Notes under the pieces: generated by a model | The model's database searches: none | Told to the model about the DNA's origin: nothing | What the model saw: the letters and a program-made list of their open reading frames with translations, nothing else | Shown: piece by piece, positions 9,638 through 58,043 of the stretch | Layout: every line of letters starts with the position of its first letter | Numbering within the stretch: the first letter of the stretch is position 1 | Assembly (NCBI GenBank): GCA_947038405.1 | Contig: CAMQVY010000008.1 | Coordinates: forward strand, 9,247 to 73,246 | Direction: 5' to 3' | Length of the DNA: 64,000 nucleotides | Source: an uncultured Rikenellaceae bacterium | GTDB lineage: Bacteria; Bacteroidota; Bacteroidia; Bacteroidales; Rikenellaceae | Position numbers and translations under genes: made by a program

Positions 9638-9665
9638 TAGTGCGATGAATGATCGCAATGAACAT
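9638..9665 (+). repeat. degenerate 3'-half copy of intergenic repeat family 1
   Basis: tagtgcgatgaatgatcgcaatgaacat resembles ..gcgtgatcgcagtgaacaat of the 53131 copy. It lies in the 5' leader of the sulfatase maturase gene. Confidence 0.35.
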
Positions 9666-9699
9666 ATATATTTTACAACTATTTTTCTGTTTAGAGTAA

Positions 9700-9707
9700 C
9701 AAAGTTA
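9700..9707 (-). promoter_or_regulatory. candidate -7 box (TAACTTTG on - strand) for the sulfatase maturase gene
   Basis: CAAAGTTA on the + strand, about 98 nt upstream of the ATG at 9602. Confidence 0.4.
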
Positions 9708-9798
9708 TAAAAAAATACGTTATATTTACGGACGATTAAAAAATGTGGAATGACTTGTACGATTGCAACCACAATAAAAAAGTGCTAAACCGCTAGTA

Positions 9799-9850
9799 AT
9801 TATGGGCAAAGGTTTGGTATATATCAAACTTTTGCCCATAATTTATTTTA
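9799..9850 (+). terminator. terminator-like hairpin inside the metK upstream region (possible leader attenuator or sRNA end)
   Basis: 18-bp stem attatgggcaaaggtttg / caaacttttgcccataat with one G-U pair and loop gtatatat. It is followed by ttatttta. No + strand CDS ends upstream of it. Confidence 0.5.
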
Positions 9851-9945
9851 CTAACAAGAGTTCACTTAGACCATGTAACGCAATCCACATAGAGCAGTTA
9901 CATTGTACTCAGTGAAAAAAAGATAACATTTTAAAATTAAAAAGT

Positions 9946-11238
9946 ATGGGATTTTTATTTACATCAGAATCAGTATCTGAGGGACACCCAGATAAGATTT
10001 CAGACCAAATTTCGGACGCCATCTTAGATGAATTTTTGCGTCATGACGAGAACTCAAAAGTTGCTTGCGAAACTATGTGTACAACAGGACTTGTAGTAGT
10101 TGCAGGAGAGGTTCGTTCGGAAGCATACGTTGACATACAAAAGATCACAAGAGAGGTTATTAAGCGTATTGGTTACACAAAGAGTGATTACCAATTTGAC
10201 TACAACTCATGTGGTATTCTATCAGCTATACATGAGCAATCTGCGGATATCAACCAAGGTGTAGTAAGAGAGGTTGCAGAGGAGCAAGGAGCTGGAGATC
10301 AAGGAATCATGTTCGGTTACGCTTGTAACGAAACTAAGGAGTATATGCCAGCAACACTTATCCTTTCACATGTTATCCTTAAAGAGCTTGCAGTCATTCG
10401 TAGAGAAGAGAAAGTAATGACATACCTACGTCCAGACTCAAAAAGTCAAGTTACTATTGAGTATGATGACAATGGCACACCTCTAAAAGTACACACTATT
10501 GTTGTGTCAACCCAACATGACGACTTTATTGTTTCTGACGCATCAATGACAGACAAAGAGGCTGAGGTTGCGATGGGTGATAAAATAAAAGAGGATGTTA
10601 AGAATATTTTAATTCCACGAGTAAAAGCACGTTTAGAGAGAGCGCAAGATAAATTATCAAACCTAATTGGCGAAGAGTATATCCTTCACGTTAACCCAAC
10701 AGGTAAATTTGTTATCGGCGGACCTCATGGTGATACTGGACTTACTGGAAGAAAAATTATCGTAGATACTTATGGTGGACGTGGTGCACATGGTGGTGGA
10801 GCTTTTTCTGGAAAAGATTCATCTAAAGTTGACCGTTCAGCAGCTTACGCAGCAAGACACATTGCAAAAAATATGGTTGCAGCAGGTGTTGCAGATCAGA
10901 TTTTAGTACAACTTAGTTATGCTATTGGAATCGCACAGCCTCTAAGTGTATATGTAGAGACTTACGGTACATCTAAAATTACGGGGCTTACAGATGGTGA
11001 CATTGCTAGAAAAATTGAGAACCTATTTGATCTACGTCCTGCACATATTGTTAAGGATTTTGGATTGAAGAGCCCTATTTTCGAAGTAACAGCATCATAC
11101 GGACACTTCGGAAATAGACCATATAGTGACAAAGTCAAAGTTTGGGAGAACGGAGTAGAAGTATTACGCGAAATTGAATTCTTCGCATGGGAGAAACTTA
11201 ATGCCGTAGATAAAATAAAGGCTGCATTTAACTTTTAG
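9946..11238 (+). CDS. metK: S-adenosylmethionine synthetase
   Basis: 430-aa ORF with [36 protein letters not shown] and GGGAFSGKD motifs. Confidence 0.97.
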
Positions 11239-11258
11239 TAGTAGCTATTAAATATTAA

Positions 11259-11326
11259 TAAGACTACCCCTCTTGGATAGTACTGCAATCACACAGTACT
11301 ATCCAAGAGGGGTAGTCTTATTTTTT
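11259..11326 (+). terminator. metK intrinsic terminator with 27-bp perfect stem
   Basis: taagactacccctcttggatagtactg (11259-11285) pairs perfectly with cagtactatccaagaggggtagtctta (11294-11320). The loop is caatcaca, followed by TTTTTT. Confidence 0.9.
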
Positions 11327-11420
11327 ATCAATATAATAAATTATATATATCACTTTATTATTGTTTAAACACATATATAATCATATCTTTATAATCGATA
11401 AATTTCTAAAATTTAATACT

Positions 11421-13535
11421 GTGAAAATAAAATTATTATATATACTTGTAGCGTTAGTTCTATTTTCGTCATGCGATCTACTCGACAAAAAAGAATCCTA
11501 CATTGAAGGTATTAAACTTAAAGAGAACACTATCCCCAATATTTTACATAAAGGTGGTGATATTACTATTATATTTTCGGCTGGATGTGATTGGTATGCT
11601 GGACTTAAAGAGATTAATCTAAGTGGAGAGATAGTCTCTCCTCAATGGTGTCGCATCAAGAATAACCAATCTGGACGTTCTGGTGAAAACCTTAAAATAA
11701 CGATAGAAGTGGATGCCCAATATAGCAATAATTATGCGAGTCGTTATGCAGCAATAGTATTGAAGTCAAGTGACCACGATGAAGATGAGAAGAACTTAAA
11801 CATAACACAAGATGGAGTAGCAAGTATTTTAGTTAACCCAAAACAAGATAGCGACAAAAGTTTTAATCACAATGAAAACGGATTTAATGTTGATGTAACA
11901 AAGTCGATCGATGAAATAAGTATTATAATAAAAGATGGAGAAAACCCTAATCCTAATGATGATACAGAGGCAACATGGATAAAAGTAGGAGAGCCTAATC
12001 TACCACCAGATACATCAAAGAAACAAGCTGACCCAGAGGTAACAACTGACGATGTGCCCAACTATGAAACTCTAGGTTTTATTTTAGAGCCAAATAATAC
12101 TCCTTATGAACGCTATGCCACTATATTTATAACTTATAAAGATATAACCTCTAAAATAACGATTTTTCAACACTTCTCTGAAAATGAAATATCGATTCCA
12201 AAGGGGGAGTTTAAAAAGTTTCTTATCAGCTACTATGACCGTAATAATGATAGAAAACTATCTGATGTAGAGGCTGCAATTGTGTCATATATGGATTGTG
12301 CCAACATAGCGATAGGAAGCATGGAGGGCATAGAGTACTTCACAAATTTAACGAGTCTAATTTGTAGAAATAGTTCGGTAGGATATCTTGACCTCTCTAA
12401 AAATACAAAATTAACAAACCTAGATTGTAGCGAAAACAATCTAATGGAGCTTAATATAACAAACAATATCGAGTTGAAATCTCTAATATGTAATAGCAAC
12501 TCATTAAAGGATATTGACATTACAAATAACACCAAATTAGAAGAGTTTTTTTGTAATGATAATTTAATTACAAAATTTGACCTATCGAAAAATACAAACC
12601 TTAAATACTTTGACTGCTCCGCACAAAGAGACATCGAATCGGCTTTAACATCTTTAGATCTATCAAAAAACATAGAGTTAATAACCTTGAGTTGTAGCTC
12701 AACAGAACTCTTCACCCTAGACCTTAGTCAAAATGTCAATTTACAAACACTATATTGTAATCGTACCAATATGACAGAGATAGATTTAAGTAGTAACATT
12801 AATTTAATGAATTTATCAGTATCAAATATTAAATCTTTAGATTTGAGTCATAATACAAATTTAAGCTATTTTTCTGCATCAGATTTAAAAAGTTTAGACT
12901 TAAGCAACAACAAAGAGCTAAAAAATCTACATTTAAGTCTGTATGGAACTTTAAAACACCTAGATCTATCTAATAACAATAAACTCAAAAAAGTAGATTT
13001 AGATAATTACTACTTGAGAACTATTGATCTTACTGGAGCTAGCGAATTAGAAGTTTTAAAGATATGTTATACATCTTCAAATATGGTACGAGGTAAATTA
13101 TCAAAACTTGATATTCCCGACAGTCCTAAACTGGCTCAATTATGGTGTCAAAATCAATCTCTAAAGGAGCTAAATTTGTTTATTAATCCAGTATTAACCA
13201 ACTTACAGTGCCACTATAATTTGATAACTAAGCTTAATGTGTCAGAGTGTCCTCTACTAGAGGAGTTGTACTGTTGGGGTAATGTATTGTCATCACTTGA
13301 CTTATCAAACAACAGAGCATTAACGGATCTAAATTGTGCTAATAATAGGCTTAAAGAACTTAATGTATCTCGTACAAATTTATCAAATTCAAAATCGATT
13401 CAACCATTAGACTGCTCAAGGAACGACGACCTTGCGACCCTATACCTCAAAGAGGGTTGGAAGATTAACTCTATAAATATAGCACGAGATGATAGTTACA
13501 TTCCATCGCTCACTGAAATTAAGTATGAAAAATAG
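11421..13535 (+). CDS. surface lipoprotein with BACON-like N-terminal domains and a long leucine-rich-repeat region
   Basis: A GTG start at 11421 gives the lipoprotein signal VKIKLLYILVALVLFSSC; the ORF-track start 11361 is a TTG extension. The GCDWYA...WCRI... pattern is BACON-like. About 45% of the protein is 21-23-aa LDLSxNxxLxxLxCxxNxL repeats (roughly 12370-13400). Confidence 0.75.
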   Translation: MKIKLLYILVALVLFSSCDLLDKKESYIEGIKLKENTIPNILHKGGDITIIFSAGCDWYAGLKEINLSGEIVSPQWCRIKNNQSGRSGENLKITIEVDAQYSNNYASRYAAIVLKSSDHDEDEKNLNITQDGVASILVNPKQDSDKSFNHNENGFNVDVTKSIDEISIIIKDGENPNPNDDTEATWIKVGEPNLPPDTSKKQADPEVTTDDVPNYETLGFILEPNNTPYERYATIFITYKDITSKITIFQHFSENEISIPKGEFKKFLISYYDRNNDRKLSDVEAAIVSYMDCANIAIGSMEGIEYFTNLTSLICRNSSVGYLDLSKNTKLTNLDCSENNLMELNITNNIELKSLICNSNSLKDIDITNNTKLEEFFCNDNLITKFDLSKNTNLKYFDCSAQRDIESALTSLDLSKNIELITLSCSSTELFTLDLSQNVNLQTLYCNRTNMTEIDLSSNINLMNLSVSNIKSLDLSHNTNLSYFSASDLKSLDLSNNKELKNLHLSLYGTLKHLDLSNNNKLKKVDLDNYYLRTIDLTGASELEVLKICYTSSNMVRGKLSKLDIPDSPKLAQLWCQNQSLKELNLFINPVLTNLQCHYNLITKLNVSECPLLEELYCWGNVLSSLDLSNNRALTDLNCANNRLKELNVSRTNLSNSKSIQPLDCSRNDDLATLYLKEGWKINSINIARDDSYIPSLTEIKYEK

Positions 13536-13575
13536 ATCATTTTACATTACAACATATTAAAATAAAAAAGACATT

Positions 13576-14370
13576 ATGAAAATAACAGTTATAGGTGGAG
13601 GTAATATGGGTGGTGCAATTGCACAAGGCTCGGTAAGGGAGTCAATTGTCGCACCACACAATGTTACAATAGCTGATCCATCTCCAGCAGTCAATAAATT
13701 TTTCTCAGAATTTAACCCATCAATTAATCTATGTCAAGATAATGCAAAGGCAATTATTGGTGCAGATATTATTATCATTGCCGTGAAACCATGGTTAGTT
13801 GAGAGTATTTTAGAAGAAATTTGTGATGTAGTTGACAGAGAGAAGCAGATGATTGTATCGATTGCAGCTCTAGTTAGTTTTGAAAACTTAAACGAATATC
13901 TTCAATCTACACAGAAAGGGTGCTTAGCTCTATACAGAGTTATACCAAATACAGCTATATCTTTGGGTCATAGTGCCACATTTATATGCAAACACAACTC
14001 TTCGACAGAGCAAGATGATATGATTATATCACTACTAAATGGGTTGGGTAAAACGTTTGTTGTAGAAGAGTCTCAAATGTCATCGCTAACAGCTCTATCC
14101 TCATGTGGGATAGCCTATATCTATAAATATATTGATGCTTCAATCAAAGGTGGTATCGAGATGGGAATAGATTGTAACCTAGCAAGAGAGGTTGTTTTAC
14201 AAACAATAGAGGGTGCATTAAAGATGTTGAACACGAACAATACAATGCCACAAATAGAGATCGACAAGGTAACTACTCCAGGAGGTATTACGCTAAAAGG
14301 TTTAGAAGAGATGGAGCGAAATGGCTTTACATCCGCAGTAATAAAAGGTCTATCTGCAAGTAATTTATAG
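13576..14370 (+). CDS. proC: pyrroline-5-carboxylate reductase
   Basis: 264-aa ORF with MKITVIGGGNMGGAIA Rossmann N-terminus and C-terminal TTPGGITLKGLEEME motif. Confidence 0.9.
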   Translation: MKITVIGGGNMGGAIAQGSVRESIVAPHNVTIADPSPAVNKFFSEFNPSINLCQDNAKAIIGADIIIIAVKPWLVESILEEICDVVDREKQMIVSIAALVSFENLNEYLQSTQKGCLALYRVIPNTAISLGHSATFICKHNSSTEQDDMIISLLNGLGKTFVVEESQMSSLTALSSCGIAYIYKYIDASIKGGIEMGIDCNLAREVVLQTIEGALKMLNTNNTMPQIEIDKVTTPGGITLKGLEEMERNGFTSAVIKGLSASNL

Positions 14371-14373
14371 TAT

Positions 14374-14419
14374 AATACAATCACTCTACTCGTGAGTAGA
14401 GTGATTGTATTATTTTTTT
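14374..14419. terminator. bidirectional terminator between proC and the B12-uptake operon
   Basis: Hairpin aatacaatcactctac / gtagagtgattgtatt followed by a T-run. The T-run overlaps the stop codon of the convergent receptor gene. Confidence 0.8.
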
Positions 14420-16340
14420 AGAATTTAAATGTTGCTCTTATTCGATACATTCTCAAAGGCATAGGAAAGTACTGAGTACTTTCATAATATGCATCAAATA
14501 TATTATCTAACTTCAGTGACAAACTTAATAGGTTCTTGTTCCTAATTCTAATCTGCCCACCAATTTCAGCATTATGCTGTAAATAAGCATCTGTGTAATA
14601 CTCCTCATCGGCACTAGTAAACCTAATATCTGTAAAAGATAGATTATAATTAAACCATATCAAATCCTTAAACCAAACCTCATAATTTCCATTCCATTTA
14701 TTTCTTGGAATATAAGGTAATTGCTTTCCCTGCGCATCATCTCCACGATTTGAGTTATCAACAGAGTGAGCATAACAATAGTTTCCCGATAGCGTATGTT
14801 TAGTGGTTCTAGCATCATATTTAAAACTCCAATCTAACTCTATACCTTGAGACACAACCGTACTAAAATTCGCTGGTGACCATATATAACCATTCCCCTT
14901 CGGTATCCACATTATCCAATTGTCTATGTCCATATGATAATATGTAGCCTCAAACTTCATCTTCAGACCACCTATTGATGGCTCTGAGATTATCGAAGCA
15001 TCCCACGAGAAACCTGTCTCAGGTTTAAGATCAGGGTTTCCTCCAGGATTCCAATATAGATCATTTAACGTCGGAACTTTATGGTTATAGGCATTTGAAG
15101 CCTTTAAAGAGAGAAATCTATCAATCACTCTATAACTTGCAGATACTCCATAAATAGCATATTGATCTTTATCTACACTCTCTACCGTTATATCGGCATC
15201 AATATGAAGACGCTTCGTAGCTCTGAACTTCGTATACACTCTCGCTGATACAGAATTTCTCGTCTCTTTTTCAGCTTCATATGTAGATGAAGTAACCACA
15301 TCATATCTATAATTAAGCGTAGCACCCAAATCGAAGCGTTTAAGATATAATAACTCATAATCAACTCTCGAAATTATACTATTATTAACATTTTCTGATT
15401 GGTCAGAAAATGAACCGAACTCTCTAGCATAATCAAAAGAACCATTTAGATGAGCAAATGTTATTTTATATTTATGTCTCGCCTTATTAGCACTATAACT
15501 TGCAATTGTACGTATATTTTGAGACTCCATCTGCTCTTTTGCCGTTTTTACAGATAGAGTAGATTGTGGCAATGAGCGATCGTCAAATTGCCACCAGCTA
15601 ATCAAACTAAACTTACCATCTTTTAATGTGTTATAATAAAACTCCTGCATCACCCCAGCCTGCTTATAGTCTGCCTCTTTACGCCTTTCAAAGTACGAAT
15701 CCATACTATACACCTTGTTAAGATACCTATAATCATTATCTGATTGTTGATAATATAACCTAGTTGACGAGGTAAATCTATTTTTAGATACTCTAAATGT
15801 CACACCCTCTGTAATTGTATTATTAGATCCATATTCACTTAGCAAAGAGATAGATGGCTTTTTTGAAGGAGTATCGTTATTTGTAAAATTAACACTTCCA
15901 CCTAATGCTCCACTACCCGATTGCTGGTCACTTCCACCGTGATAAAGAGATACATTATCAGTAAAATATATAGGAACTTGAGAAAAATCAAAACTACCAA
16001 TTGATGCAGAATTAATAGAGATTCCGTTCCAAAGCACTTGAGTATGGCTTGAAGATGTCCCTCGAAATGATGCCGTAGACAGAGCGCCTTGCCCCATACT
16101 TTTAATATTAATTGTACTATTATTATTTAGTAATTCAGCTAAACTTTTAGTTCTATTCTGCTCTAGTATAGCACCATCAATCCTAGTAACTTTACTTCCG
16201 ACTCTACTGTTTTTCTTCACATCAACAACAGATACATCGTCAATAAGAAATAGAGAATCTTCGATTCCTTTTTGACTAAATGCACTTTTGCCAAAGGCAA
16301 AAACTAAAACAATAACTAAAATAATGACTCTACACATCAT
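14418..16340 (-). CDS. btuB: TonB-dependent receptor, BtuB-like (predicted corrinoid transporter)
   Basis: 640-aa ORF with a signal peptide, a plug region (IDDVSVV TonB-box-like, SLAELLNN, FRGTSSSHTQVLWNGISIN) and a C-terminal beta-barrel ending in an aromatic F. It is the last gene of an operon headed by a cobalamin riboswitch. Confidence 0.8.
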   Translation of the reverse strand: MMCRVIILVIVLVFAFGKSAFSQKGIEDSLFLIDDVSVVDVKKNSRVGSKVTRIDGAILEQNRTKSLAELLNNNSTINIKSMGQGALSTASFRGTSSSHTQVLWNGISINSASIGSFDFSQVPIYFTDNVSLYHGGSDQQSGSGALGGSVNFTNNDTPSKKPSISLLSEYGSNNTITEGVTFRVSKNRFTSSTRLYYQQSDNDYRYLNKVYSMDSYFERRKEADYKQAGVMQEFYYNTLKDGKFSLISWWQFDDRSLPQSTLSVKTAKEQMESQNIRTIASYSANKARHKYKITFAHLNGSFDYAREFGSFSDQSENVNNSIISRVDYELLYLKRFDLGATLNYRYDVVTSSTYEAEKETRNSVSARVYTKFRATKRLHIDADITVESVDKDQYAIYGVSASYRVIDRFLSLKASNAYNHKVPTLNDLYWNPGGNPDLKPETGFSWDASIISEPSIGGLKMKFEATYYHMDIDNWIMWIPKGNGYIWSPANFSTVVSQGIELDWSFKYDARTTKHTLSGNYCYAHSVDNSNRGDDAQGKQLPYIPRNKWNGNYEVWFKDLIWFNYNLSFTDIRFTSADEEYYTDAYLQHNAEIGGQIRIRNKNLLSLSLKLDNIFDAYYESTQYFPMPLRMYRIRATFKF

Positions 16341-16342
16341 CT

Positions 16343-18779: not shown

Positions 18780-18924
18780 AATAGTTGGTGTTAATAAATT
18801 AATAACATAATTAATAAATAACACTTACAAAGTAAAACTAAGGAGAAATAGCGATATGCCGGGCCCAACATACATACTACTTACCATGCTTTTTTACCCG
18901 AAGCATTTTAATAAGTATAAAAGT

Positions 18925-19065
18925 ATTTTGGCAGGTCTTCTGGCTACCTCAATTTACATGCCTTCCCATTACTATTAATAACAGTGGCGATGAATATGTA
19001 AATTTTCACGAGGATTACAGCTGCGGGTACAGCTCCGAAATCAAATCGGATTCCCTATTAGTATG
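18925..19065 (-). promoter_or_regulatory. cobalamin (B12) riboswitch
   Basis: The reverse complement reads AATAGGGAATCCGATTTGATTTCGGAGCTGTACCCGCAGCTGTAATCC...CATCGCCACTG...AATGGGAAGGC...GGTAGCCAGAAGACCTGCC. This includes a B12 box (AGCCAGAAGACCTGCC, 18930-18945) and the GCCACTG and GGGAAGGC elements. Confidence 0.88.
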
Positions 19066-19099
19066 ATATGTTTTATAACATATCTACACCAAAACGTCA

Positions 19100-19107
19100 C
19101 AAAGGTA
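19100..19107 (-). promoter_or_regulatory. candidate -7 box (TACCTTTG on - strand) driving the riboswitch-led operon
   Basis: CAAAGGTA on the + strand, about 35 nt upstream of the riboswitch 5' conserved region. Confidence 0.5.
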
Positions 19108-19211
19108 GATATAAATTTTATATCTACCATACATATATACTAAAAATATTACATGCTAATATGCTACTGTTACATAAGCTACCAACCCACACTAGTATCT
19201 ATATATCAAAC

Positions 19212-27783: not shown

Positions 27784-27812
27784 TTTGAAAATATCAGAAA
27801 ACTCAAAGTTCC

Positions 27813-27864
27813 CCAAAAAAATAGACACAAATAACTTAAAAAAGTTATTTATGTCTATTTTTTA
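27813..27864 (+). terminator. terminator of the small acidic ORF (19-bp stem)
   Basis: aaatagacacaaataactt (27819-27837) pairs with aagttatttatgtctattt (27842-27860) with one mismatch. The loop is aaaa, followed by a T-run. Confidence 0.8.
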
Positions 27865-27957
27865 GTTTATCGACAAAGGCAGTTTGTTAACTAGTTTTGT
27901 TTGTGTGACGCAGGGAACTGCCCTACGCGGGCTGCGGTGCGTGATCGCACTCAACAA
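27864..27957 (+). repeat. intergenic repeat family 1, extended 94-nt unit, tandem copy 1
   Basis: agtttatcgacaaaggcagtttgttaactagttttgtttgtgtgacgcagggaactgccctacgcgggctgcggtgcgtgatcgcactcaacaa. It is 89/94 identical to 28007-28100 by hand alignment. Confidence 0.9.
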
Positions 27958-28006
27958 AAAGTCCTAGAAAACAAAGTTTTCACGAAAGTTTGATGAAACT
28001 TTTTAA

Positions 28007-28100
28007 AGTTTATCACCAAAGGCAGTTTGTTGACTAGTTTTGTTTGTGTGACGCAGGAAACTGCCCTACGCGGGCTGCGGTACGTGATCGCACTCAACAA
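28007..28100 (+). repeat. intergenic repeat family 1, extended 94-nt unit, tandem copy 2
   Basis: Same unit with 5 substitutions and no indels. It ends on the base before the mnmA stop codon (28101-28103). Confidence 0.9.
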
Positions 28101-29282
28101 CTATTTATTTATAACTCCTGAGCCTATCAATTCATCAACATCATACCACGCAGCAAATTGACCTGCGGATATACCTCTTTGAGGCTGGTCAAATAGTATA
28201 TATGCGCCACTCTCTTCGATATTAAGAGTTGCTTTCTGCAACGGTTGACGGTATCGTATTCGCACATCAAACTCCTTTGACTCTCCCAGCCCTAATGCTA
28301 AGTCCTCTCGAATCCAATGAATTTCCTCTGGAAGTATTTGTATAGCCCTTCTCTGTAATCCAGGGTGATTGTCTCCCATTCCTACATATATTATATTACT
28401 ATCGACATCCGTACTTATAACAAACAGTGGTTCTGGCTTTCCACCCACATTCAACCCCTTACGCTGTCCAATAGTATAGAAATGAGCACCATTATGTTCT
28501 CCGACCACTTTACCATCTTCAGCACAGTATGTATATGGCATTGAAAGCAGCTCTAAATCGTCTGAAACATCACTACTATACCCACTCCAACTTGCAGGAA
28601 TCTCAACAATAACACCTTTTTTTGTCTTTAGTTTTTGCTGTAAAAACACAGGAAGATCAACTTTCCCAACAAAACATATACCTTGAGAATCTTTGCGTTT
28701 TGCTGTTGCAAGTTTATTCTCTTCAGCAATTCGCCTCACTTCTGGTTTTATTATATCACCTATTGGAAACATCGCTTTAGAGAGTTGTTCTTGAGAAAGT
28801 TGACAAAGAAAATAACTTTGATCTTTATTATTATCGGCACCAGCAATAAGCTTAAACACCTCTTTTCCATCAACCATTTCACTATCCACACGACAATAAT
28901 GTCCCGTTGCAACATAATCAGCTCCAAGTTTTAGAGCTTCTTTAAGAAACACATCAAATTTAATCTCACGATTACATAGTACATCTGGATTCGGCGTTCT
29001 CCCCTTTTCGTACTCACTGAACATATAGTCTACAACTTTAGCCCTATACTCTACACTCAAATCAATACAATGAAATGGAATATCTAATCTCTTTGCAACT
29101 AGCTCTGCAAACATCTGATCGTCGTACCAAGTACACTCTCCTGCGAGTGTTCCCGTTGTATCGTGCCAATTCCTCATAAATAGAGCAATCACTTCATACC
29201 CTTGTTCTTTCAGTAGATATGCTGCAACTGAGGAATCTACCCCACCAGACATACCTATAACAACACACTTTTTATTACTCAT
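28101..29282 (-). CDS. mnmA: tRNA 2-thiouridine(34) synthase
   Basis: [26 protein letters not shown]-loop and conserved catalytic Cys regions. The ATG at 29282 is preferred because the ORF-track start 29303 is TTG and overlaps a -7 box CAAAGATA (29301-29308). Confidence 0.93.
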
Positions 29283-33893: not shown

Positions 33894-33957
33894 AATATAT
33901 TGTGATGCAAATTAGAATTTGCTAGGTACATAAAATTTACTCCGTGAGTATCATTTT

Positions 33958-33975
33958 CGTGATCGTACTCAACAA
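33958..33975 (+). repeat. repeat family 1, 3'-half copy
   Basis: cgtgatcgtactcaacaa matches the 3' end of the family core (cgtgatcgcactcaacaa) with one substitution. It lies downstream of panD. Confidence 0.5.
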
Positions 33976-35565: not shown

Positions 35566-35624
35566 ATATTATTTTCTTAATGTACTAAATTATATAATTT
35601 ATTAACTCTCATATAGTTTGAGAT

Positions 35625-35648
35625 AACTACCCTACGTGGGCGGAACAA
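35625..35648 (+). repeat. repeat family 1, 5'-half copy
   Basis: aactaccctacgtgggcggaacaa corresponds to hairpin 1 plus the terminal aacaa; the central gtgcgtgatcgcac module is missing. Confidence 0.5.
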
Positions 35649-35816
35649 TGTTAACTAAGCACTAACTATATTAAAATTGCCAACTCGACTGTTAATAACT
35701 TTGTTACAAACTTCAAGTACATCGCTGTATATTAGTTATAATATACCAATTGTACCATATCAATTTAATCCAACTAGTGAACTTAAAACAGTGTTATATT
35801 ACCTCAGAGAGCTAAT

Positions 35817-38276: not shown

Positions 38277-38426
38277 ATGTTTTGTTTTACTTCAATTATA
38301 ACGACAAATATCACCCATATCGTCAAAAATATTTATGGGCAAAAGTTACGGATGCAACATACACCCTAAAAACTTGCGAAAGATACGAAAAACTTTGCTT
38401 TTTTTTAGGGTTTTAGCAAAAAAATA

Positions 38427-38486
38427 TTGAGTGCGATCACGTACCACTACCCACATAGGGCGGCAGTACGTGATCGCACTCAACAA
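38427..38486 (-). repeat. repeat family 1 composite: two inverted 3'-arms around a hairpin-1 module; acts as terminator of the 38495 gene
   Basis: ttgagtgcgatcacgtac (38427-38444) and gtacgtgatcgcactcaa (38466-38483) are perfect 18-nt inverted repeats around cactacccacatagggcggca. On the - strand the hairpin is followed by a T-run. Confidence 0.85.
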
Positions 38487-39847: not shown

Positions 39848-39907
39848 ACGCAATATTTTTAGTTGATATATGCAATGTACACATTTAAAATCTAATTAAC
39901 AAACTAC

Positions 39908-39955
39908 TGTTGAGTACGATCACGCACTACCGCCCGCGGAGGGCAGTTCGCAGGC
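39908..39955 (-). repeat. repeat family 1 core copy (reverse orientation)
   Basis: The reverse complement reads cctgcgaactgccctccgcgggcggtagtgcgtgatcgtactcaacag. It lies upstream of the 38495-39847 gene. Confidence 0.8.
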
Positions 39956-39963
39956 TAGTTTTC

Positions 39964-51896: not shown

Positions 51897-51957
51897 AACA
51901 AAAACAGAAAACTAAGTTTTCAACAAATTCTGTTGAAAACTTAGTTTTCTGTTTTTA
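51897..51957 (+). terminator. guaB terminator (25-bp perfect stem; nested-palindrome family 2)
   Basis: aaaacagaaaactaagttttcaaca (51901-51925) pairs perfectly with tgttgaaaacttagttttctgtttt (51931-51955). The loop is aattc. Confidence 0.85.
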
Positions 51958-51983
51958 ATTTATCATTTAATAATTTTAAGATT

Positions 51984-52394
51984 ATGCTTACAAGAGTTAT
52001 TGATTTAAGAGTTCGCTACTACGAGACAGATATGATGGGTGTTGTTCACCACTCAAACTATATACGTTTCTACGAGATGGCTAGAACTGAGATGATGAGG
52101 GGAATTAGTGGGACATACAAAGCATTAGAAGACGAAGGTATTATGATGCCAGTGATAGAGGTCTCTTCTAAGTATCATGCACCTGCATATTATGATGATG
52201 TGTTGAGTATAAAAACTACGCTGACTAAAATACCTACTGTTCGAATGATATTCGAATACGAGATAACAAATCAGAACGGGGAGTTATTAAATACGGGAAC
52301 AGTTCAACTTGCATATATGCACACCGATACCCGCAAGGCGTGTAGAGCTCCGAAGTGGTTTATTGATTTAATTACTAGTAAGTGGGAGGAGTAA
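51984..52394 (+). CDS. acyl-CoA thioesterase (YbgC/4HBT hotdog family)
   Basis: 136-aa ORF with VRYYETDMMGVVHHSNYIRFYE, the typical 4HBT N-terminal catalytic region. Confidence 0.85.
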   Translation: MLTRVIDLRVRYYETDMMGVVHHSNYIRFYEMARTEMMRGISGTYKALEDEGIMMPVIEVSSKYHAPAYYDDVLSIKTTLTKIPTVRMIFEYEITNQNGELLNTGTVQLAYMHTDTRKACRAPKWFIDLITSKWEE

Positions 52395-52431
52395 ACCACT
52401 CTTAACACTCAAAAATATAAACAGTTCAAAT

Positions 52432-52497
52432 AACTTATAATCGCCATATAAACTCTCAATTCTGAGATTTTATATGGCGATTATAAGTTTATTTTAA
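52432..52497 (+). terminator. terminator of the thioesterase gene (21-bp stem with nested apical hairpin)
   Basis: aacttataatcgccatataaa (52432-52452) pairs with tttatatggcgattataagtt (52469-52489). The loop contains tctca attc tgaga. It is followed by tatttta. Confidence 0.8.
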
Positions 52498-52563
52498 ATT
52501 GACTGTAACGTTTGGTATATCTAAAACGTCTTAGTTATAAGACTAACTAAAAATCAATCAACT

Positions 52564-53121
52564 ATGAGGGCATTAACTATGATTAAATTTGTACTACTCC
52601 TCGCAGGAGTAATTACAATGAACCCAATCACAACAGCAGCTCCTTCTTCTCTTAGAAAAAGCAAATCTGCTAGGGTTACACTAAATACTTTCGGTTCAAA
52701 GGAAATGGAAAAAAAACTAGAAGGAGTAGGATATGATTGGACAAAACTAAGTACTGAAGATCAAAAAATATTTAAAGAGTCACTTTCCCATCTAGACAAT
52801 AAATTAAAACAAGCCAATAAAGTATTTAAACTATCAATAAAAATATTTAGAAAAGGAGGGCTAAAACTACAATGGTTCAACAAAAAAGTGTTTAGCAACA
52901 AATTCATACGAGATGCACGTAAAGTTGCAAAAAAACCAGAAACACTGACTCCAAAAAAGGCTGAAAAATACCAATCAGAAATACTTGAAATAATATATAA
53001 TCGATATAGATTACTATTTAAAGAGATTGGGACAGAGTTTCCAAAATTCAACCCAGATTCTGACATTGATTTTAACTTTAACTTTAATACAAATATTACT
53101 AAAGAGAGTACTATTGTATAG
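52564..53121 (+). CDS. hypothetical secreted Lys-rich protein
   Basis: 185-aa ORF with an N-terminal hydrophobic signal-like segment (alternative start at 52579), K-rich helical sequence and a C-terminal DIDFNFNFNTN tract. I recognise no family. Confidence 0.45.
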   Translation: MRALTMIKFVLLLAGVITMNPITTAAPSSLRKSKSARVTLNTFGSKEMEKKLEGVGYDWTKLSTEDQKIFKESLSHLDNKLKQANKVFKLSIKIFRKGGLKLQWFNKKVFSNKFIRDARKVAKKPETLTPKKAEKYQSEILEIIYNRYRLLFKEIGTEFPKFNPDSDIDFNFNFNTNITKESTIV

Positions 53122-53130
53122 TTTTGATTG

Positions 53131-53172
53131 AACTGCCCTATGTGGGCGGCACTGCGTGATCGCAGTGAACAA
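53131..53172 (+). repeat. repeat family 1 core copy
   Basis: aactgccctatgtgggcggcactgcgtgatcgcagtgaacaa, starting 10 nt after the stop of the 52564 gene. Both hairpin modules are intact (cactgcg tgat cgcagtg is a perfect 7-bp stem). Confidence 0.8.
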
Positions 53173-53212
53173 TGTGATTATATTACATACTATATGACGA
53201 ATTGACAACACG

Positions 53213-53260
53213 ATAGGTGATATTTTGGCTGATAACTTGCCAAAATGTCACCTATTTTAC
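53213..53260 (+). terminator. terminator-like hairpin downstream of the 52564 gene
   Basis: ataggtgatattttggc / gccaaaatgtcacctat form 17 bp with one G-U pair, followed by ttta. Confidence 0.6.
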
Positions 53261-53345
53261 GTTGGCACATAAATTGTTAATTAATAGCTCACTGCAAGCA
53301 CGCAGGACAGTCAAAGAAAACTAATTAAATAAAAAAATAAAAGAG

Positions 53346-55409
53346 ATGCAAAACGGTAAAATTGGTGTTACAACGGAAAATATCTTTCCAATTATTAAAA
53401 AATTCTTATACTCAGATCACGAAATTTTCTTGAGAGAGTTGGTTTCAAACGCTGTCGATGCAACGCAGAAGTTAAAAACATACTCTTCAATCGGAGAGTT
53501 CAAAGGAGAGCTAGGAGATATATCTGTTGAAGTATCTTTAGACAAAGAGAAAAAAATACTAACAATCTCGGATCATGGTATTGGTATGACTGCTGATGAG
53601 GTTGAAAAATATATCAATCAAATTGCATTTTCAGGAGCTGAAGAGTTCATGGAGAAGTACCAAAACCAATCTATCATTGGACACTTTGGACTTGGATTCT
53701 ACTCATCATTCATGGTATCTGACAAAGTTGAACTTCGTACAAAATCATTTAGAGATGGTGCGAAAACTATGCTATGGAGCTGTGATGGTACACCTGAGTA
53801 CACATTAGTTGAGTGCGAAGAGCAGAGAGAGACTAGAGGTACCGATATTATTCTATACTTGAGCGAAGAGTCTGCGGAGTTTGCTGATGAGACTAGAATT
53901 GGTGAGATGTTAAAAAAATATTGTCGTTTCCTTCCTGTTCCAATCAAGTTCGGAAAACAAACTGAATGGAAAGATGGAAAAGATGTAGAGACTGGGGAAG
54001 ATAATGTTATCAATAGCGTTGCGCCACTTTGGACACGCACTCCATCAACAGTAAAAGAGGGTGAATATAATGATTTCTACACAACTCTATATCCTATGAG
54101 CGAAGAGTCTCTATTCCATATCCACTTGAATATAGACTATCCATTTAACCTTACAGGTATTTTGTACTTCCCTAAAATCAATAACAACTTCGAGGTTCAG
54201 AAGAATAAGATTCAACTATATTCAAACCAAGTATATGTTACTGATTCTGTTGAAGGTATTGTTCCTGAGTTCTTGACTCTACTACATGGTGTGATTGACT
54301 CTCCAGATATTCCATTGAACGTTTCGAGAAGTTACCTACAAAGCGATAGTAATGTAAAGAAAATATCTGGATATATAACTCGTAAGGTTGCAGATAGACT
54401 TCAGGAGTTATTCAACTCGATGAGAGGTGAGTATGAGAGCAAGTGGGATGATTTGAAAGTATTTATACAATATGGTACAGTTACAGATGAGAAGTTTGCT
54501 GAAAAAGCAAACAACTTTATGCTATTAAAAAATACTGAAGGTAAATATTTCACTCTTGAGGAGTACAACACTCTAGTAAAAGAGAACCAAACAGACAACA
54601 AAAATTCTCTTATCTATCTATACACTACTGATGTAGATGGACAGTACCGCTTCATTGAAGCTGCAAAGAGAAAGGGATATGATGTTCTAGTTATGAATGG
54701 TCAACTAGACAACCACTATATCAATTGGTTTGAGAGTAAAAATCAAGATATACACTTTGTCAGAGTTGACTCAGATGTAATTGACAAATTGATTCAAAAA
54801 GATAGCAACAACTCTATCTCATTGAGTAGTTCTCAACAAGATGTACTATCTCCAGTTTTTGAGGCTCAACTTGCAAGCGATAGTAAATCTCAGTATAATA
54901 TCAAATTCGAGGCTATGGATAGTACAGATGCACCAGTTGTGATTACACAGCAGGAGAATATGCGTCGTATGAAAGAGATGGCTGCTATGGGTAATGGTGG
55001 AATGTATCAGTTCTACGGACAGATGCCAGATAGTTTCAATGTATCTGTTAACGGAAACCACCCATTAGTTATTGAGATCTTTGGTGATGTTGAGAAGGCT
55101 TATGGTGAAGGATTGAAGAGCGACAATAGCAATATTGAGGCTGCAATCAAAAAACAAAGCTCTCTTAATGAGGTTCTAGCAGGCAAAAAAGAGGAGGAAA
55201 TAACTACTGAGGAGAAGGATATGCGCACTGAGTTAGAGGAGAACGTAGCGAAACTTAAAGGAGAGAAAACTTCTAAACTTAAAGAGCTTGGTTCTGAGAA
55301 TAAATTGGTTAAGCAGATTGTTGATTTGGCTCTGCTATCTAACGGAATGCTTAAAGGAGAACAGCTTGATAGCTTCATACGAAGAAGTGTTGAGCTTATA
55401 AAAAAATAA
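53346..55409 (+). CDS. htpG: molecular chaperone HtpG (Hsp90)
   Basis: 687-aa ORF with the GHKL ATPase N-terminus (FLRELVSNAVDA, GIGMT, GHFGLGFYS). Confidence 0.96.
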   Translation: MQNGKIGVTTENIFPIIKKFLYSDHEIFLRELVSNAVDATQKLKTYSSIGEFKGELGDISVEVSLDKEKKILTISDHGIGMTADEVEKYINQIAFSGAEEFMEKYQNQSIIGHFGLGFYSSFMVSDKVELRTKSFRDGAKTMLWSCDGTPEYTLVECEEQRETRGTDIILYLSEESAEFADETRIGEMLKKYCRFLPVPIKFGKQTEWKDGKDVETGEDNVINSVAPLWTRTPSTVKEGEYNDFYTTLYPMSEESLFHIHLNIDYPFNLTGILYFPKINNNFEVQKNKIQLYSNQVYVTDSVEGIVPEFLTLLHGVIDSPDIPLNVSRSYLQSDSNVKKISGYITRKVADRLQELFNSMRGEYESKWDDLKVFIQYGTVTDEKFAEKANNFMLLKNTEGKYFTLEEYNTLVKENQTDNKNSLIYLYTTDVDGQYRFIEAAKRKGYDVLVMNGQLDNHYINWFESKNQDIHFVRVDSDVIDKLIQKDSNNSISLSSSQQDVLSPVFEAQLASDSKSQYNIKFEAMDSTDAPVVITQQENMRRMKEMAAMGNGGMYQFYGQMPDSFNVSVNGNHPLVIEIFGDVEKAYGEGLKSDNSNIEAAIKKQSSLNEVLAGKKEEEITTEEKDMRTELEENVAKLKGEKTSKLKELGSENKLVKQIVDLALLSNGMLKGEQLDSFIRRSVELIKK

Positions 55410-55428
55410 TTTTTTTATAGTTTTATAT

Positions 55429-55475
55429 AACTGCCCACCTCAGACACTGTTGTTCGAGGTGGGCAGTTTTTTTTG
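55429..55475 (+). terminator. htpG terminator
   Basis: aactgcccacctc (55429-55441) / gaggtgggcagtt (55456-55468) followed by TTTTTTTT. Confidence 0.85.
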
Positions 55476-55496
55476 TAATATCTCAAAACAATTGTC

Positions 55497-55504
55497 TATA
55501 TTTG
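55497..55504 (+). promoter_or_regulatory. candidate -7 box TATATTTG for the creatininase-family gene
   Basis: Matches TAnnTTTG, 24 nt upstream of the ATG at 55528. Confidence 0.5.
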
Positions 55505-55527
55505 CAAAACAGTAAATTCATTTTTTT

Positions 55528-56295
55528 ATGATTGAGAACAGATTTATAGACTTAGCGAATATCTCTTACGGAGATGTAAAAGATAATAGATACGATATGG
55601 CTATTTTACCATGGGGAGCAACAGAACCACATAACTACCATCTGCCATATCTAACTGATTCAATTCTTTCGCATGACATCGCTGTTGAAGCTTCAATTAA
55701 GGCAAACAAAGCAGAAGGTATAAATGCAATGGTACTTCCTGCAATCAATTGTGGGTCTCAAAACCCTGGACAGCATAACTTGCCATTCTGCATACATTAT
55801 AGGTATGAGACACAAAAAGCAATCCTAAATGATACAGTAGCAGCACTAAACAGACAGGGAATTACCAAACTTCTAATTATAAATGGACATGGTGGGAATA
55901 CATTCAAAAATATGATTCGAGACCTCTATTTAGAGTATCCAAACTTTTTGATTGCGACAACAGAGTGGTTTAACATAGTGCCTGTTGAGTGTTACTTTGA
56001 CGAAGATGATGATCATGCAGGTGAAATAGAGACCTCTGTAATGATGCACTACCACCCTGAATATGTAACCATATCTAATGCAGGAAGTGGAGAGTATACT
56101 CCTTTCTCGATGCAAAGTTTGAATAGTAAGATTGCATGGGTACCAAGACATTGGGATAAAGCGACAAAAGATACTGGAATAGGGAATCCAAAATATTCTA
56201 CAGCAGAAAAAGGTAAAAGATATACACACGCTGTTAGTGATAAATTATCCGAACTAATCATAGATTTATCTAAAAATAATCTATATGAAAAATAA
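55528..56295 (+). CDS. creatininase family amidohydrolase
   Basis: 255-aa ORF. AILPWGATEPHNYHLPYLTD and INGHGGN motifs are typical of creatinine amidohydrolase-family proteins. Confidence 0.8.
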   Translation: MIENRFIDLANISYGDVKDNRYDMAILPWGATEPHNYHLPYLTDSILSHDIAVEASIKANKAEGINAMVLPAINCGSQNPGQHNLPFCIHYRYETQKAILNDTVAALNRQGITKLLIINGHGGNTFKNMIRDLYLEYPNFLIATTEWFNIVPVECYFDEDDDHAGEIETSVMMHYHPEYVTISNAGSGEYTPFSMQSLNSKIAWVPRHWDKATKDTGIGNPKYSTAEKGKRYTHAVSDKLSELIIDLSKNNLYEK

Positions 56296-56689
56296 AAATT
56301 TCTTAACTTCATCTGTTTTATGGGGTTATATCGGTGTTGTACTATTTTTGATTTTATACGATTTTTCAGATCATAGTATGACTAAAGTTCCAACTACAAT
56401 TCTAGGAATACCATTAGATAAAATTGTTCATTTTATGATGTTTTTTTCATTTCCTGTTATTATAGATATTTATCGTAAGTCCCACCCTAAAATTAAATGG
56501 CTACAACGTAGTATCGTAATATTAATACTTGGCACTGCATTCGCGATAACAACCGAATTACTACAATTATTACTAACATCTTATCGAAGTTTTGATATTT
56601 CAGATATTATTGCTGATATTTGTGGCGTAATAATAGGAATAGTTGTTATTAAGATTAAACTGCGATACACACGCGACACTGCATTATAG
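56285..56689 (+). CDS. VanZ family membrane protein
   Basis: 134-aa four-TM ORF with a DKIVHFMMF... and ...D.IAD..G pattern typical of VanZ-like proteins. It overlaps the upstream gene by 11 nt. Confidence 0.65.
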   Translation: MKNKNFLTSSVLWGYIGVVLFLILYDFSDHSMTKVPTTILGIPLDKIVHFMMFFSFPVIIDIYRKSHPKIKWLQRSIVILILGTAFAITTELLQLLLTSYRSFDISDIIADICGVIIGIVVIKIKLRYTRDTAL

Positions 56690-56699
56690 CAGTGAACAT
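56673..56699 (+). repeat. repeat family 1, 3'-half-like hairpin straddling the VanZ stop codon
   Basis: gcgacactgcattatagcagtgaacat resembles gcggcactgcgtgatcgcagtgaacaat of the 53131 copy. It contains the hairpin cactgc attata gcagtg. Confidence 0.45.
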
Positions 56700-56753
56700 T
56701 TAAATTATTAGTTGTCTGTAACCACGCAGTGCAATTACATCAAATTAAGAAAT

Positions 56754-57986
56754 ATGAAAATTGCTATAATTGGCGCAGGTGCTGCGGGATTTTTCACAGC
56801 CATCAATCTAAAGGAACTAACTTTAAATGCAGATATAACTATCTATGAAAGCTCATCGAGAGTACTATCTAAAGTATCTGTATCTGGTGGTGGAAGGTGT
56901 AACTTGACCAACTCATTTGAGGAGATAAAGAGTCTATCAACAGTATATCCACGTGGTGAAAAGTTAATGAAAGGTATATTTAAAACATTTAACCACAACG
57001 ACACAATCAATTGGTTTGAAGATAACGGCGTAAAATTAGTTACCCAAAATGACTGCTGTGTATTTCCTGAGTCGCAAGATTCTCAAGAGATAATAGATAC
57101 TTTCTTAGACCTATCGGATGAATTAGGTATCAAAATTAAAACTTCATCTCAAATTCGCTCTATCGAAAGAGATGGTGAGGGATTTAGATTACTACTAGAT
57201 AACACAGAACTCCCTAGCGACATATATGATGCTGTTGTTATAACAACAGGTGGCAGCCCTAAACGCGAAGGCTTTAATATGTTAAGCTCTCTTCCACTAG
57301 ATATAATCGACCCAGTACCTTCATTATTCAGCTTCAATGTCACAAACGATCCTATTACAGATCTTATGGGTACAGTAGTTGAGAATGTCTCTGTAAAATT
57401 ACAAGGATTTAAACCAAAAGCTACGGGAGCACTACTAATAACACATTGGGGGGTAAGTGGTCCTGCGATATTAAAACTTTCATCGTATGCTGCACGTATT
57501 TTAAAAAATAGTGATTACACTGCAAAGTTATCTATAAATTGGATCGCTGAATATATAGAAAAGAGAGTCCATTCTGAATTAGCATATATAATTGAACATA
57601 ATAGTCAAAAACTGCTATCATCCATTAGACCTTACAATCTGCCATCTCGACTATGGCTTGCACTTCTTAAACGCGCAAATGTCTCTGAAGAGAGACGCTG
57701 GGCTGAACTCGGAAGTAAAGGTATAAACCGCATTGTAAATGTACTTACCAACGACGAGTATGATATTCGTGGCAAAAGTAGATTCAAAGATGAATTTGTG
57801 ACCTGCGGAGGAGTATCGCTAGAGAGTATTAACCCTGTAACGATGGAGAGTAAAGAGTGCCCGAACCTATATCTAGCAGGAGAAGTACTAGATATTGATG
57901 CGATTACAGGTGGATTTAATCTACAAGCGGCATGGAGTACTGGATATATTGTTGCACAATCCATTGCAGATAAAATAGAGAATTAA
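56754..57986 (+). CDS. NAD(P)/FAD-dependent oxidoreductase (HI0933 / BaiN-like flavoprotein family)
   Basis: An ATG at 56754 gives the MKIAIIGAGAAGFF dinucleotide-binding N-terminus. SGGGRCNLTN and C-terminal GGFNLQAAWSTG motifs match this family. Confidence 0.85.
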   Translation: MKIAIIGAGAAGFFTAINLKELTLNADITIYESSSRVLSKVSVSGGGRCNLTNSFEEIKSLSTVYPRGEKLMKGIFKTFNHNDTINWFEDNGVKLVTQNDCCVFPESQDSQEIIDTFLDLSDELGIKIKTSSQIRSIERDGEGFRLLLDNTELPSDIYDAVVITTGGSPKREGFNMLSSLPLDIIDPVPSLFSFNVTNDPITDLMGTVVENVSVKLQGFKPKATGALLITHWGVSGPAILKLSSYAARILKNSDYTAKLSINWIAEYIEKRVHSELAYIIEHNSQKLLSSIRPYNLPSRLWLALLKRANVSEERRWAELGSKGINRIVNVLTNDEYDIRGKSRFKDEFVTCGGVSLESINPVTMESKECPNLYLAGEVLDIDAITGGFNLQAAWSTGYIVAQSIADKIEN

Positions 57987-58002
57987 TTTTTTAGGTTGAT
58001 GA

Positions 58003-58043
58003 AACTGCCCTACTCGGGCAGTGCTTTGCGATCATAGCAAACA
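58003..58043 (+). repeat. repeat family 1 copy (diverged 3' half)
   Basis: aactgccctactcgggcagtgctttgcgatcatagcaaaca. Hairpin 1 is perfect (ctgccc tactc gggcag). The copy fills the convergent gap between the oxidoreductase and the 58044 lipoprotein gene. Confidence 0.6.

Follow-up and report, generated by a model that had tools for sequence, protein, structure and literature searches.

In Escherichia coli, repetitive extragenic palindromic (REP) sequences and bacterial interspersed mosaic elements (BIMEs) bind integration host factor (IHF) and gyrase, and some of the REPs have been shown to protect mRNA 3' ends or to help termination. Classical REPs occur mainly as inverted dimers and head-to-tail dimers are rare (PMC3733652). 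According to Quentin et al. 2018, subclass 2.6 (Bertels group 5) of the TnpA_REP transposases is found mostly in Bacteroidetes, Bacteroides xylanisolvens included, and its cognate repeats lack GTAG and have weak or atypical structures; in B. xylanisolvens, for instance, the repeat is GTTC and then a hairpin (PMC6006769). Here we describe a family of short repeats in an uncultured Rikenellaceae bacterium of the Bacteroidales. The stretch analysed, referred to as the window, comprises 64,000 nucleotides (GenBank assembly GCA_947038405.1, contig CAMQVY010000008.1, positions 9,247 to 73,246). The repeat element has a 42-nt core, AACTGCCCTnnnCGGGCGGnnCTGCGTGATCGCAGTGAAC, with 64% GC in a genome of 35% GC. 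An earlier note, made from the letters of the window alone, had described a dispersed family of structured, REP-like intergenic repeats; its observation was confirmed and its interpretation partly supported. With moderate confidence we regard the family as a selfish, lineage-restricted structured repeat of the REP, BIME and BOX kind, spread probably via a hairpin-recognising HUH/Y1 enzyme acting on single-stranded DNA.

Established are the family's existence and copy number, its structure with the covariation, its placement and the organisation of its arrays, and the orthology and decay of copies from one species to another. In the window we counted six to seven full copies and two solid half copies, besides several relics in decay. 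Chance levels for the half patterns were obtained from dinucleotide-preserving shuffles of the window. With up to 3 mismatches allowed, the 3'-half pattern matched seven times and the 5'-half pattern six times, and the shuffles gave an expectation of 0 for each. The degenerate word YGTGATYGCAS matched nine times, against 0.17 expected, and four of these matches were situated outside canonical copies. We concluded that the family is real and far beyond chance. A CRISPR array was ruled out, as the spacers within and between the arrays are themselves repeated.

The consensus AACTGCCCTACGCGGGCGGCGCTGCGTGATCGCAGTGAACAA was derived from 76 ungapped copies, whose column profile placed the ends of the core at AACTGCCC... 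and ...(G/C)AAC and revealed three invariant blocks, AACTGCCCT, GGGC and TGCGTGATCGCA. GATC was present at core positions 28-31 in 68 of the 76 copies, and eight otherwise intact copies carried GGTC instead. Many of the differences between copies had been read as C/T and G/A changes at CpG positions. Transitions did prevail in the conserved columns (42, with 22 transversions), but the CpG columns, 7 of 30, held 15 of the 42 transitions, a mild enrichment and not a strong signature of CpG decay.

The sites in the window are given below; E-values were obtained with nhmmer and a profile hidden Markov model (HMM) built from six copies. Loci outside the window are designated by L numbers. L118 belongs to the same species, L007, L031, L066, L068 and L082 to the metagenome-assembled genome (MAG) of a sister species and L096 to a third species.

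27916-27957, plus strand: full core copy A, E = 1.3e-13, first unit of a tandem array of the long type.
27958-28058, plus strand: spacer module of the 143-nt unit, 101 nt, also found at the non-orthologous loci L118, L007, L066 and L068 in two species.
28059-28100, plus strand: full core copy B, E = 1.4e-13; its 3' end adjoins the mnmA stop codon (28101, minus strand).
27863-27915, plus strand: partial spacer, the last ~53 nt, 5' of copy A and directly after a bidirectional terminator hairpin at ~27818-27866 (from sequence and alignment).
39907-39962 (nhmmer 39908-39948), minus strand: full copy C, extended at its 5' end by AAAACTAGCCTGCG, E = 5e-13; ortholog at L031 4209-4250.
38424-38486, both strands: site E, deletion derivative of a head-to-head dimer; 38446-38486 on the plus strand (E = 8e-11) and an overlapping inverted match at 38426-38461 on the minus strand (E = 2e-8).
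53131-53172, plus strand: full copy D, E = 1.7e-12; ortholog in L082, 40 of 42 positions identical.
58003-58043, plus strand: decayed copy F, E = 2.2e-10, aligned to L082 7079-7236.
35625-35648 (nhmmer 35625-35644), plus strand: 5' half copy G, E = 0.006.
33955-33975, plus strand: 3' half copy H, E = 0.0015, flanked by the panD stop codon and a bidirectional terminator; L096 6376-6419 is its decayed ortholog.
9860-9899, minus strand: decayed full-length copy, read by eye, E = 1.5 over model positions 1-40 (weak).
9638-9665, plus strand: perhaps a relic of the 3' half, its loop enlarged, E = 0.41 (weak).
56673-56699, plus strand: hairpin-2-like sequence CACTGC...GCAGTGAAC, E = 12, in a segment absent from the sister species; a possible member of the family.
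55429-55468, plus strand: element-derived htpG terminator, which starts with AACTGCCC and ends with GGGCAGTT and T8; MAG ortholog at L082 4529-4585.
11262-11317, plus strand: metK terminator hairpin with a CpG-decayed relic, E = 0.031, matching YGTGATYGCAS.
62081-62120, both strands: bidirectional terminator with CpG-decayed relics, matching YGTGATYGCAS at 62084 and 62107.

All full copies of the earlier list were recovered by the profile (E 1e-13 to 2e-8). Its half copies fared differently: 33956-33975 (E = 0.0015) and 35625-35644 (E = 0.006) held, and 9638-9664 (E = 0.4) and 56673-56698 (E = 12) were indistinguishable from chance. An 11-nt relic proposed at 60822 was likewise at chance level (E = 31) and shares bases with the TTG at which a peptidase gene starts. 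Four sites were absent from that list, namely 9860-9899 (minus strand), 11262-11317, 62081-62120 and 55429-55468. In half copy G, positions 1-19 are fused straight to AACAA and hairpin 2 is deleted. The decayed copy at 9860-9899 sits between a SAM-II riboswitch and the metK start codon. Scanning the whole window against Rfam detected only cobalamin and SAM-II riboswitches, and a permissive scan of 27800-28150 gave nothing near threshold. Both riboswitches were above the Rfam gathering threshold: SAM-II at 9739-9798 (plus strand), upstream of the S-adenosylmethionine synthetase gene (9946-11238), and cobalamin at 18913-19108 (minus strand). At the left end of the window two adjacent minus-strand genes of glycosyltransferase family 2 (490-1484 and 1548-2542) are tandem paralogues with 72% DNA identity.

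Covariation was counted on a 70-sequence alignment of the core. Mutual information within the core was highest for the column pairs 22:35, 11:21 and 12:20, all three of them Watson-Crick and nested. The observed covariation score was reached by 0 of 500 shuffles, and sliding the partners by one to three columns lowered the score sharply. Hairpin 2 comprises 5 bp (positions 22-26/31-35) with a TGAT loop that overlaps the GATC, and 97% of its cells were paired; pair 22:35 was C-G in 51 copies, G-C in 19 and unpaired in none. The compensatory change that had been suggested for this hairpin holds statistically (0 of 500 shuffles), but not the longer stem drawn for it. The outer two pairs, 20:37 and 21:36, were unpaired in 29 and 23 of the 70 copies, and a 7-bp hairpin 2 was rejected. 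Nor does GATC mark the centre of the hairpin, lying one base off its dyad. Hairpin 1 (positions 3-8/14-19), an imperfect stem of 6 bp, was paired in 96% of the cells and almost invariant. This stem had been proposed as well, as CTGCCC/GGGCRG, but no real covariation was found for it. Its pair 4:18 was a T.G wobble in 52 of the 70 copies and a mismatch in nine, 61 altogether.

The other two covarying pairs belong to a helix that the earlier note had overlooked, helix X, formed by 11:21, 12:20 and 13:19. Pairs 11:21 and 12:20 were paired in 91% of the cells (11:21, 43 C-G and 20 U-A; 12:20, 51 G-C, nine U-A and one A-U), and 13:19 was C-G in 65 copies. Because helix X and hairpin 1 both use positions 14-19, they are mutually exclusive alternatives. 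A pseudoknot of the two was rejected on geometry, with connecting loops of zero length. Under RNA parameters the combination of hairpin 1 and hairpin 2 had a clear advantage in stability. Under DNA parameters a competing fold came within about 1 kcal/mol of it and was the minimum-energy fold for two of four subfamilies; in it the common 5' flank GCAG pairs with CTGC, and helix X and hairpin 2 then form.

The core was found alone, with short spacers of 13-31 nt, or inside a unit of 131-143 nt with a conserved spacer. In the loci examined, the 47 separate sites comprised 25 singletons and 22 clusters. Adjacent copies were arranged head-to-tail in 33 cases, head-to-head in three and tail-to-tail in one, and the head-to-tail gaps fell into two classes, 13-31 nt or 83-117 nt. 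What had been noted as a tandem pair does contain two real copies; they are, however, parts of two 143-nt units, each made of the 42-nt core and a conserved 101-nt spacer. This long unit, spacer included, was detected at no fewer than five non-orthologous loci in two species (window 27863-28100, L118, and L007, L066 and L068 of the MAG). Two palindromes rich in AT, GAAAAC/GTTTTC and AAAGTTT/AAACTTT, are present in the spacer, as is the segment GGCAGTT, whose complement AACTGCC begins the core. Within the conserved spacer, some 20 nt upstream of the core, lies TAGTTTTG, a candidate promoter element that matches the -7 promoter box of Bacteroidetes, TAnnTTTG. Folding of the whole 146-nt unit gave z values from -1.4 to -3.5 and no consistent fold. 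The possibility that the spacer is a decayed inverted copy was rejected, since its local alignment was no better than that of shuffles (p = 0.1-0.4).

About 4 kb past the right end of the window, at L118 16953-17280, a three-unit array of the 143-nt type lies between an SLT-domain gene and rnhA. Contigs of three independent assemblies, the window's own contig among them, end inside this array. The repeats thus fragment assemblies of the window organism, and in practical terms such arrays break the metagenome assemblies of the clade. Most arrays (window 27863-28100, L118, L007, L066 and L068) stop exactly at the 3' end of the core, and their start points in the spacer vary. Among the half copies, 3' halves (33955-33975 and 9638-9665) outnumber 5' halves (35625-35648), in numbers too small to judge. 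The exact 3' ends and the mostly 5'-truncated halves could hint at copying anchored at the 3' end.

To follow the family in other genomes we scanned 185,579 species-representative genomes with a pattern in which any base was allowed at the variable stem positions, and at least 90 stretches were listed. The MAG of uncultured Rikenellaceae bacterium ERR3139993_bin.5 (CAMRBL01, 35-40% GC) gave at least 77 profile hits on at least 32 loci, so that the copy number does exceed that of the window, as the earlier note had expected for the genome as a whole. Two MAG loci aligned to the window at about 85% and 92% nucleotide identity, and this genome is therefore a sister species and not the source of the window. 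Among the matches listed, profile hits came from loci of the MAG alone. Most of the other rows belonged to high-GC taxa, and the four examined closely (L017, L026, L048 and L054) were chance matches. The third species (PheT 88% identical) contained decayed relics only, at L096, and no copies were detected in 3 x 22 kb of the next relatives (sister genus, PheT about 70% identical, 49% GC).

The repeats had no matches in IMG/VR, plasmids or phages, and the only larger repeat common to the loci examined was the family's own unit of 131-143 nt. The view that the copies are not fragments of a known insertion sequence or prophage end was thereby upheld. In the JGI metagenomes the strict pattern had 0 matches, and a relaxed pattern for hairpin 2 gave 19 single matches in high-GC contigs, which were attributed to chance. 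We concluded that the family is confined to a narrow clade. Its carriers are probably a small group of fish-gut Rikenellaceae. An exact protein look-up assigned the window to ENA ERZ28620936 (RIIS20-1_SAMEA5316449_METAG-scaffold_115), and judging by this name the study would be that of Riiser et al. 2020 on gut metagenomes of codfish (PMC7054092).

A comparison of the window species with the MAG was possible at five sites, namely C, D, E, F and the htpG terminator, and each of them was occupied in both. The differences were limited to copy number, deletion and point decay. At site F one copy in the window corresponded to three tandem copies in the MAG. Site E had been recorded as a composite at 38427-38486. 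It does match on both strands, but it arose by a 47-nt deletion from a head-to-head dimer that has a spacer of 26 nt; the sister species carries this dimer intact (L031 5672-5781). Orthologous copies were no better conserved than the adjacent non-coding DNA. In the third species sites E and H were heavily decayed copies, and the neighbouring terminators were kept. The pheT-guaA spacer measured 251 nt in the window (35566-35816) and 41 nt in the third species (L096 4753-4793); the extra ~210 nt consist of half copy G and AT-rich sequence. Judged from these comparisons, the copies are apparently dispensable individually and decaying. The segment between copy D and htpG (53173-53345), which includes a terminator with hairpin and T-run, was by eye about 97% identical to the MAG, against about 92% over the 5.8-kb locus. 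Together the three related species form a natural series in which the life and death of a repeat population can be followed: intact copies are numerous in one, intact and decayed copies are mixed in another, and in the last there are just relics.

No copy was found inside a gene, in agreement with the intergenic placement first proposed. Arrays occupied 15 of 29 convergent but only 2 of 23 divergent spacers (Fisher p = 0.001). Counted per array, 15 contexts were convergent, 22 co-directional (11 sense, eight antisense and three mixed) and two divergent. The median distance from the array edge to the nearest stop codon was 9 nt; the genes of the MAG are simple open reading frame (ORF) calls, for which stop-codon distances are more reliable than start positions. 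Where the 3' end of a copy faces a gene, the distance to the stop codon was mostly -3 to +9 nt, and the terminal CTA of some copies, read on the opposite strand, is the TAG stop codon. Within the window, stop codon and terminator enclose D, H and the A/B array. Copy D is in sense orientation, 9 nt past the stop codon and 5' of the terminator of the same gene, and copy F occupies a 57-nt gap between two convergent stop codons. Copy C is located beyond the terminator of the upstream gene, 60 nt ahead of the next start codon.

We infer both the mobility of the repeat and the enzyme responsible. Units would have been copied to many non-orthologous sites and then multiplied in place into head-to-tail rows, through slippage or unequal exchange. 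Copies would persist only where they do little harm, in the few bases that separate stop codon from terminator, with convergent gene pairs as the most frequent setting. The spread itself would most likely have been carried out by a hairpin-specific HUH/Y1 enzyme that recognises a folded single strand; a REP-associated tyrosine transposase (RAYT) is the obvious candidate, subclass 2.6 being the Bacteroidetes form. An enzyme of this type leaves no target duplication. None was detected, as the longest word common to the true flanks was 6.0 nt compared with 5.65 nt for mismatched flanks. Terminal inverted repeats were also absent from the alignments, in which the ends, AAC... and ...AAC, are direct. 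Handling by a Y1/HUH enzyme is suggested by this lack of duplications and inverted termini, by the imperfect conserved hairpin and by the published TnpA_REP subclass 2.6 of Bacteroidetes.

Several observations weigh against such a spread. No Y1/HUH transposase was found in 358 kb, a fraction of these genomes, by a scan for HuH/Y motifs and by phmmer with E. coli RayT against ORFs of at least 80 aa; the sole phmmer match (L062, E = 0.055) was a low-complexity junk ORF. Head-to-tail pairs dominate (33 of 37 adjacent pairs), unlike in classical REPs, and the core contains neither a GTAG nor a CGTC tag. Presence/absence polymorphism between strains, which the earlier note had named as a possible sign of mobility, was not seen: in strains 99.4-100% identical to the window the occupancy was the same at all sites covered. 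The window-MAG comparison did not recover a clean pair of filled and empty sites either, and any recent transposition is thus conjectural. Finally, the covariation statistics are inflated, because copies share descent within subfamilies. Even so, four different Watson-Crick combinations at 11-12/20-21, distributed over many contigs with few intermediates, would seem hard to obtain without constraint.

It is possible but unlikely that the family is instead a host-serving RNA module of the 3' untranslated region (UTR), transcribed with the upstream gene, whose hairpins protect the mRNA 3' end or aid termination and which is kept by selection and not by mobility. The position of D, H and A/B between stop codon and terminator, and the median stop-codon distance of 9 nt, would fit this, as would the T.G wobble at 4:18, which pairs on the top strand only. 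Derivatives of the repeat also resemble working terminators.

Terminator use of such derivatives is part of our preferred reading too, as a secondary role. Canonical copies are followed by AACAA or AACTA, lack a T-run and do not qualify as intrinsic terminators; a hairpin with a T-run was present only in inverted or collapsed derivatives (38424-38486, 55429-55468, 11262-11317 and 62081-62120). On the minus strand 38424-38486 has a perfect 18-bp stem, TTGAGTGCGATCACGTAC/GTACGTGATCGCACTCAA, followed by T7, and is probably the intrinsic terminator of the DUF4419 gene. The MAG ortholog of the htpG terminator consists of element positions 1-26, a loop and the reverse complement of 1-26. The metK terminator has as its apex hairpin 2, in which each of the two CpG has become TpG, and as its foot ACTACCCC/GGGGTAGT. 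Both arms of 62081-62120, which serves a convergent peptidase/ManC gene pair, are TGTGATTGCAGGGA, the CpG-decayed 3' half as an inverted pair. We infer from such sequences that derivatives of the repeat have probably been reused as intrinsic terminators at several genes, and among the genes supplied in this way are the housekeeping genes metK and htpG.

Several points speak against a host-serving 3'-UTR module. Orientation relative to the transcribed gene was random (11 sense, eight antisense and three mixed arrays). Such randomness makes it less credible that the family owes its existence to a strand-specific RNA function. Canonical copies have no T-run, the number of copies per site varies (one or three at site F), and in the third species orthologous copies decayed while the adjacent terminators were retained. 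Some copies are moreover situated beyond the terminator or 60 nt 5' of start codons (sites C and G).

The repeats might also be non-mobile, born from ordinary terminator hairpins and spread by local tandem duplication with occasional ectopic recombination or gene conversion. The prevalence of head-to-tail arrays is in line with this, all comparable sites are common to two species, and several terminators share AACTGCCC...GGGCAGTT and TGTGATTGCAG. We nevertheless consider this origin unlikely. There are 47 separate sites, a single 131-143-nt unit occurs at five or more unrelated loci, and identical subfamily variants are found on many contigs, for which some copy-and-paste process is needed.

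A more speculative and rather unlikely reading starts from the two folds of the core. It would be a two-state element, alternating between 3-8/14-19 and 11-13/19-21, the latter when an upstream GCAG or GGCAGTT captures the 5' arm. Such an element might spread by a mechanism other than the classical transposition of REPIN and RAYT, at which the arrays with exact 3' ends and variable starts and the mostly 5'-truncated half copies would hint, or be a functional switch of RNA or single-stranded DNA just after stop codons.

We regard it as improbable that the repeats are arrays of double-stranded DNA binding sites for a host nucleoid, topology or methylation-linked protein, with the invariant blocks and GATC as recognition sequence. 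The blocks are long, GATC is present in 68 of 76 copies, and the REP/BIMEs of E. coli bound by IHF and gyrase are a precedent. But three column pairs vary freely as long as complementarity is kept, which points to strand folding and not to a fixed protein-DNA code; the eight GGTC copies are otherwise intact, and copies decay in related species. Hardly credible is a MITE (miniature inverted-repeat transposable element) that goes back to a DDE-type insertion sequence and is mobilised by it, since the small, dispersed, intergenic repeats, with a 131-143-nt unit within the MITE size range, have no terminal inverted repeats and no target-site duplication, and neither a larger related element in the loci examined nor any similarity to plasmids, phages or IMG/VR was found.

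A selfish repeat of the REP kind thus remains our preferred reading, and the family is best placed by comparison with described repeats. BOX elements of Streptococcus pneumoniae are similar in that they are modular and intergenic, reside in a low-GC genome and contain a ~45-nt module repeated head-to-tail. To our knowledge no transposase is known for BOX either. The sequence and host of BOX are unrelated to those of the Rikenellaceae repeats, and its A and C end modules form a long hairpin.

With the REPs, REPINs and BIMEs of Enterobacteria and Pseudomonas, which are linked to RAYTs, the Rikenellaceae family has more in common. In both cases the repeats are short, GC-rich, imperfectly palindromic, extragenic, high-copy and lineage-specific. 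They are enriched after genes and between convergent genes, keep their pairing while the stems change, leave no target duplication and include singlets and deletion derivatives of inverted dimers. The Rikenellaceae core differs by the absence of a GT[AG]G foot and by two small adjacent hairpins with an alternative helix in place of one long stem, and no RAYT is linked to it. Its arrangement of 33 head-to-tail, three head-to-head and one tail-to-tail pairs also contrasts with REPs, which are mostly inverted dimers (PMC3733652). The CGTC-tagged REPs share with the Rikenellaceae family the lack of an identified dedicated transposase, an occurrence in Bacteroidetes, among other phyla, and loops of 4-5 nt, but have the CGTC that our core lacks, stems of 8-9 bp and mainly head-to-head dimers (Di Nocera et al. 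2013, PMC3733652).

Within the Bacteroidales, BrickBuilt of Porphyromonas gingivalis is likewise species-specific, strictly intergenic and repeated head-to-tail (Klein et al. 2015, PMC4596501). It consists, however, of 23-nt units without spacers, with leader and tail modules that have inverted ends, and numbers only 19 copies, at distances of 49-591 nt from genes; it carries promoters and has no GC-rich hairpin core (PMC4596501).

A description of the Rikenellaceae family was not found in the literature searched, nor among the subclass 2.6 REP sequences in supplement parts 5 and 6 of PMC6006769. The family itself is previously undescribed; its kind, that of REP, BIME and BOX, is already known, and it is not a new type of system. 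The earlier statement that no REP-like family of this form had been described in Bacteroidales is therefore correct for the family, but has to be qualified by the subclass 2.6 repeats reported in Bacteroidetes including B. xylanisolvens (PMC6006769). Subclass 2.6 REPs resemble the Rikenellaceae repeats in phylum, in the absence of a GTAG tag, in weak or atypical structure and in species-specific sequences. The bottom strand of the Rikenellaceae element reads GTT(C/G) and then hairpin 2, as in the B. xylanisolvens REP, a four-base likeness that may be coincidence. In contrast, no sequence in the REP table rows of supplement parts 5 and 6 resembles the core, and subclass 2.6 REPs were defined by their flanking a transposase gene. 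The core offers a concrete substrate for testing what RAYT subclass 2.6, or another enzyme, recognises. A well-defined REP-like family is hereby added to the Bacteroidales, where such repeats are barely characterised, and its organisation is unusual in the head-to-tail arrays, the absence of a tag and an alternative helix supported by covariation.

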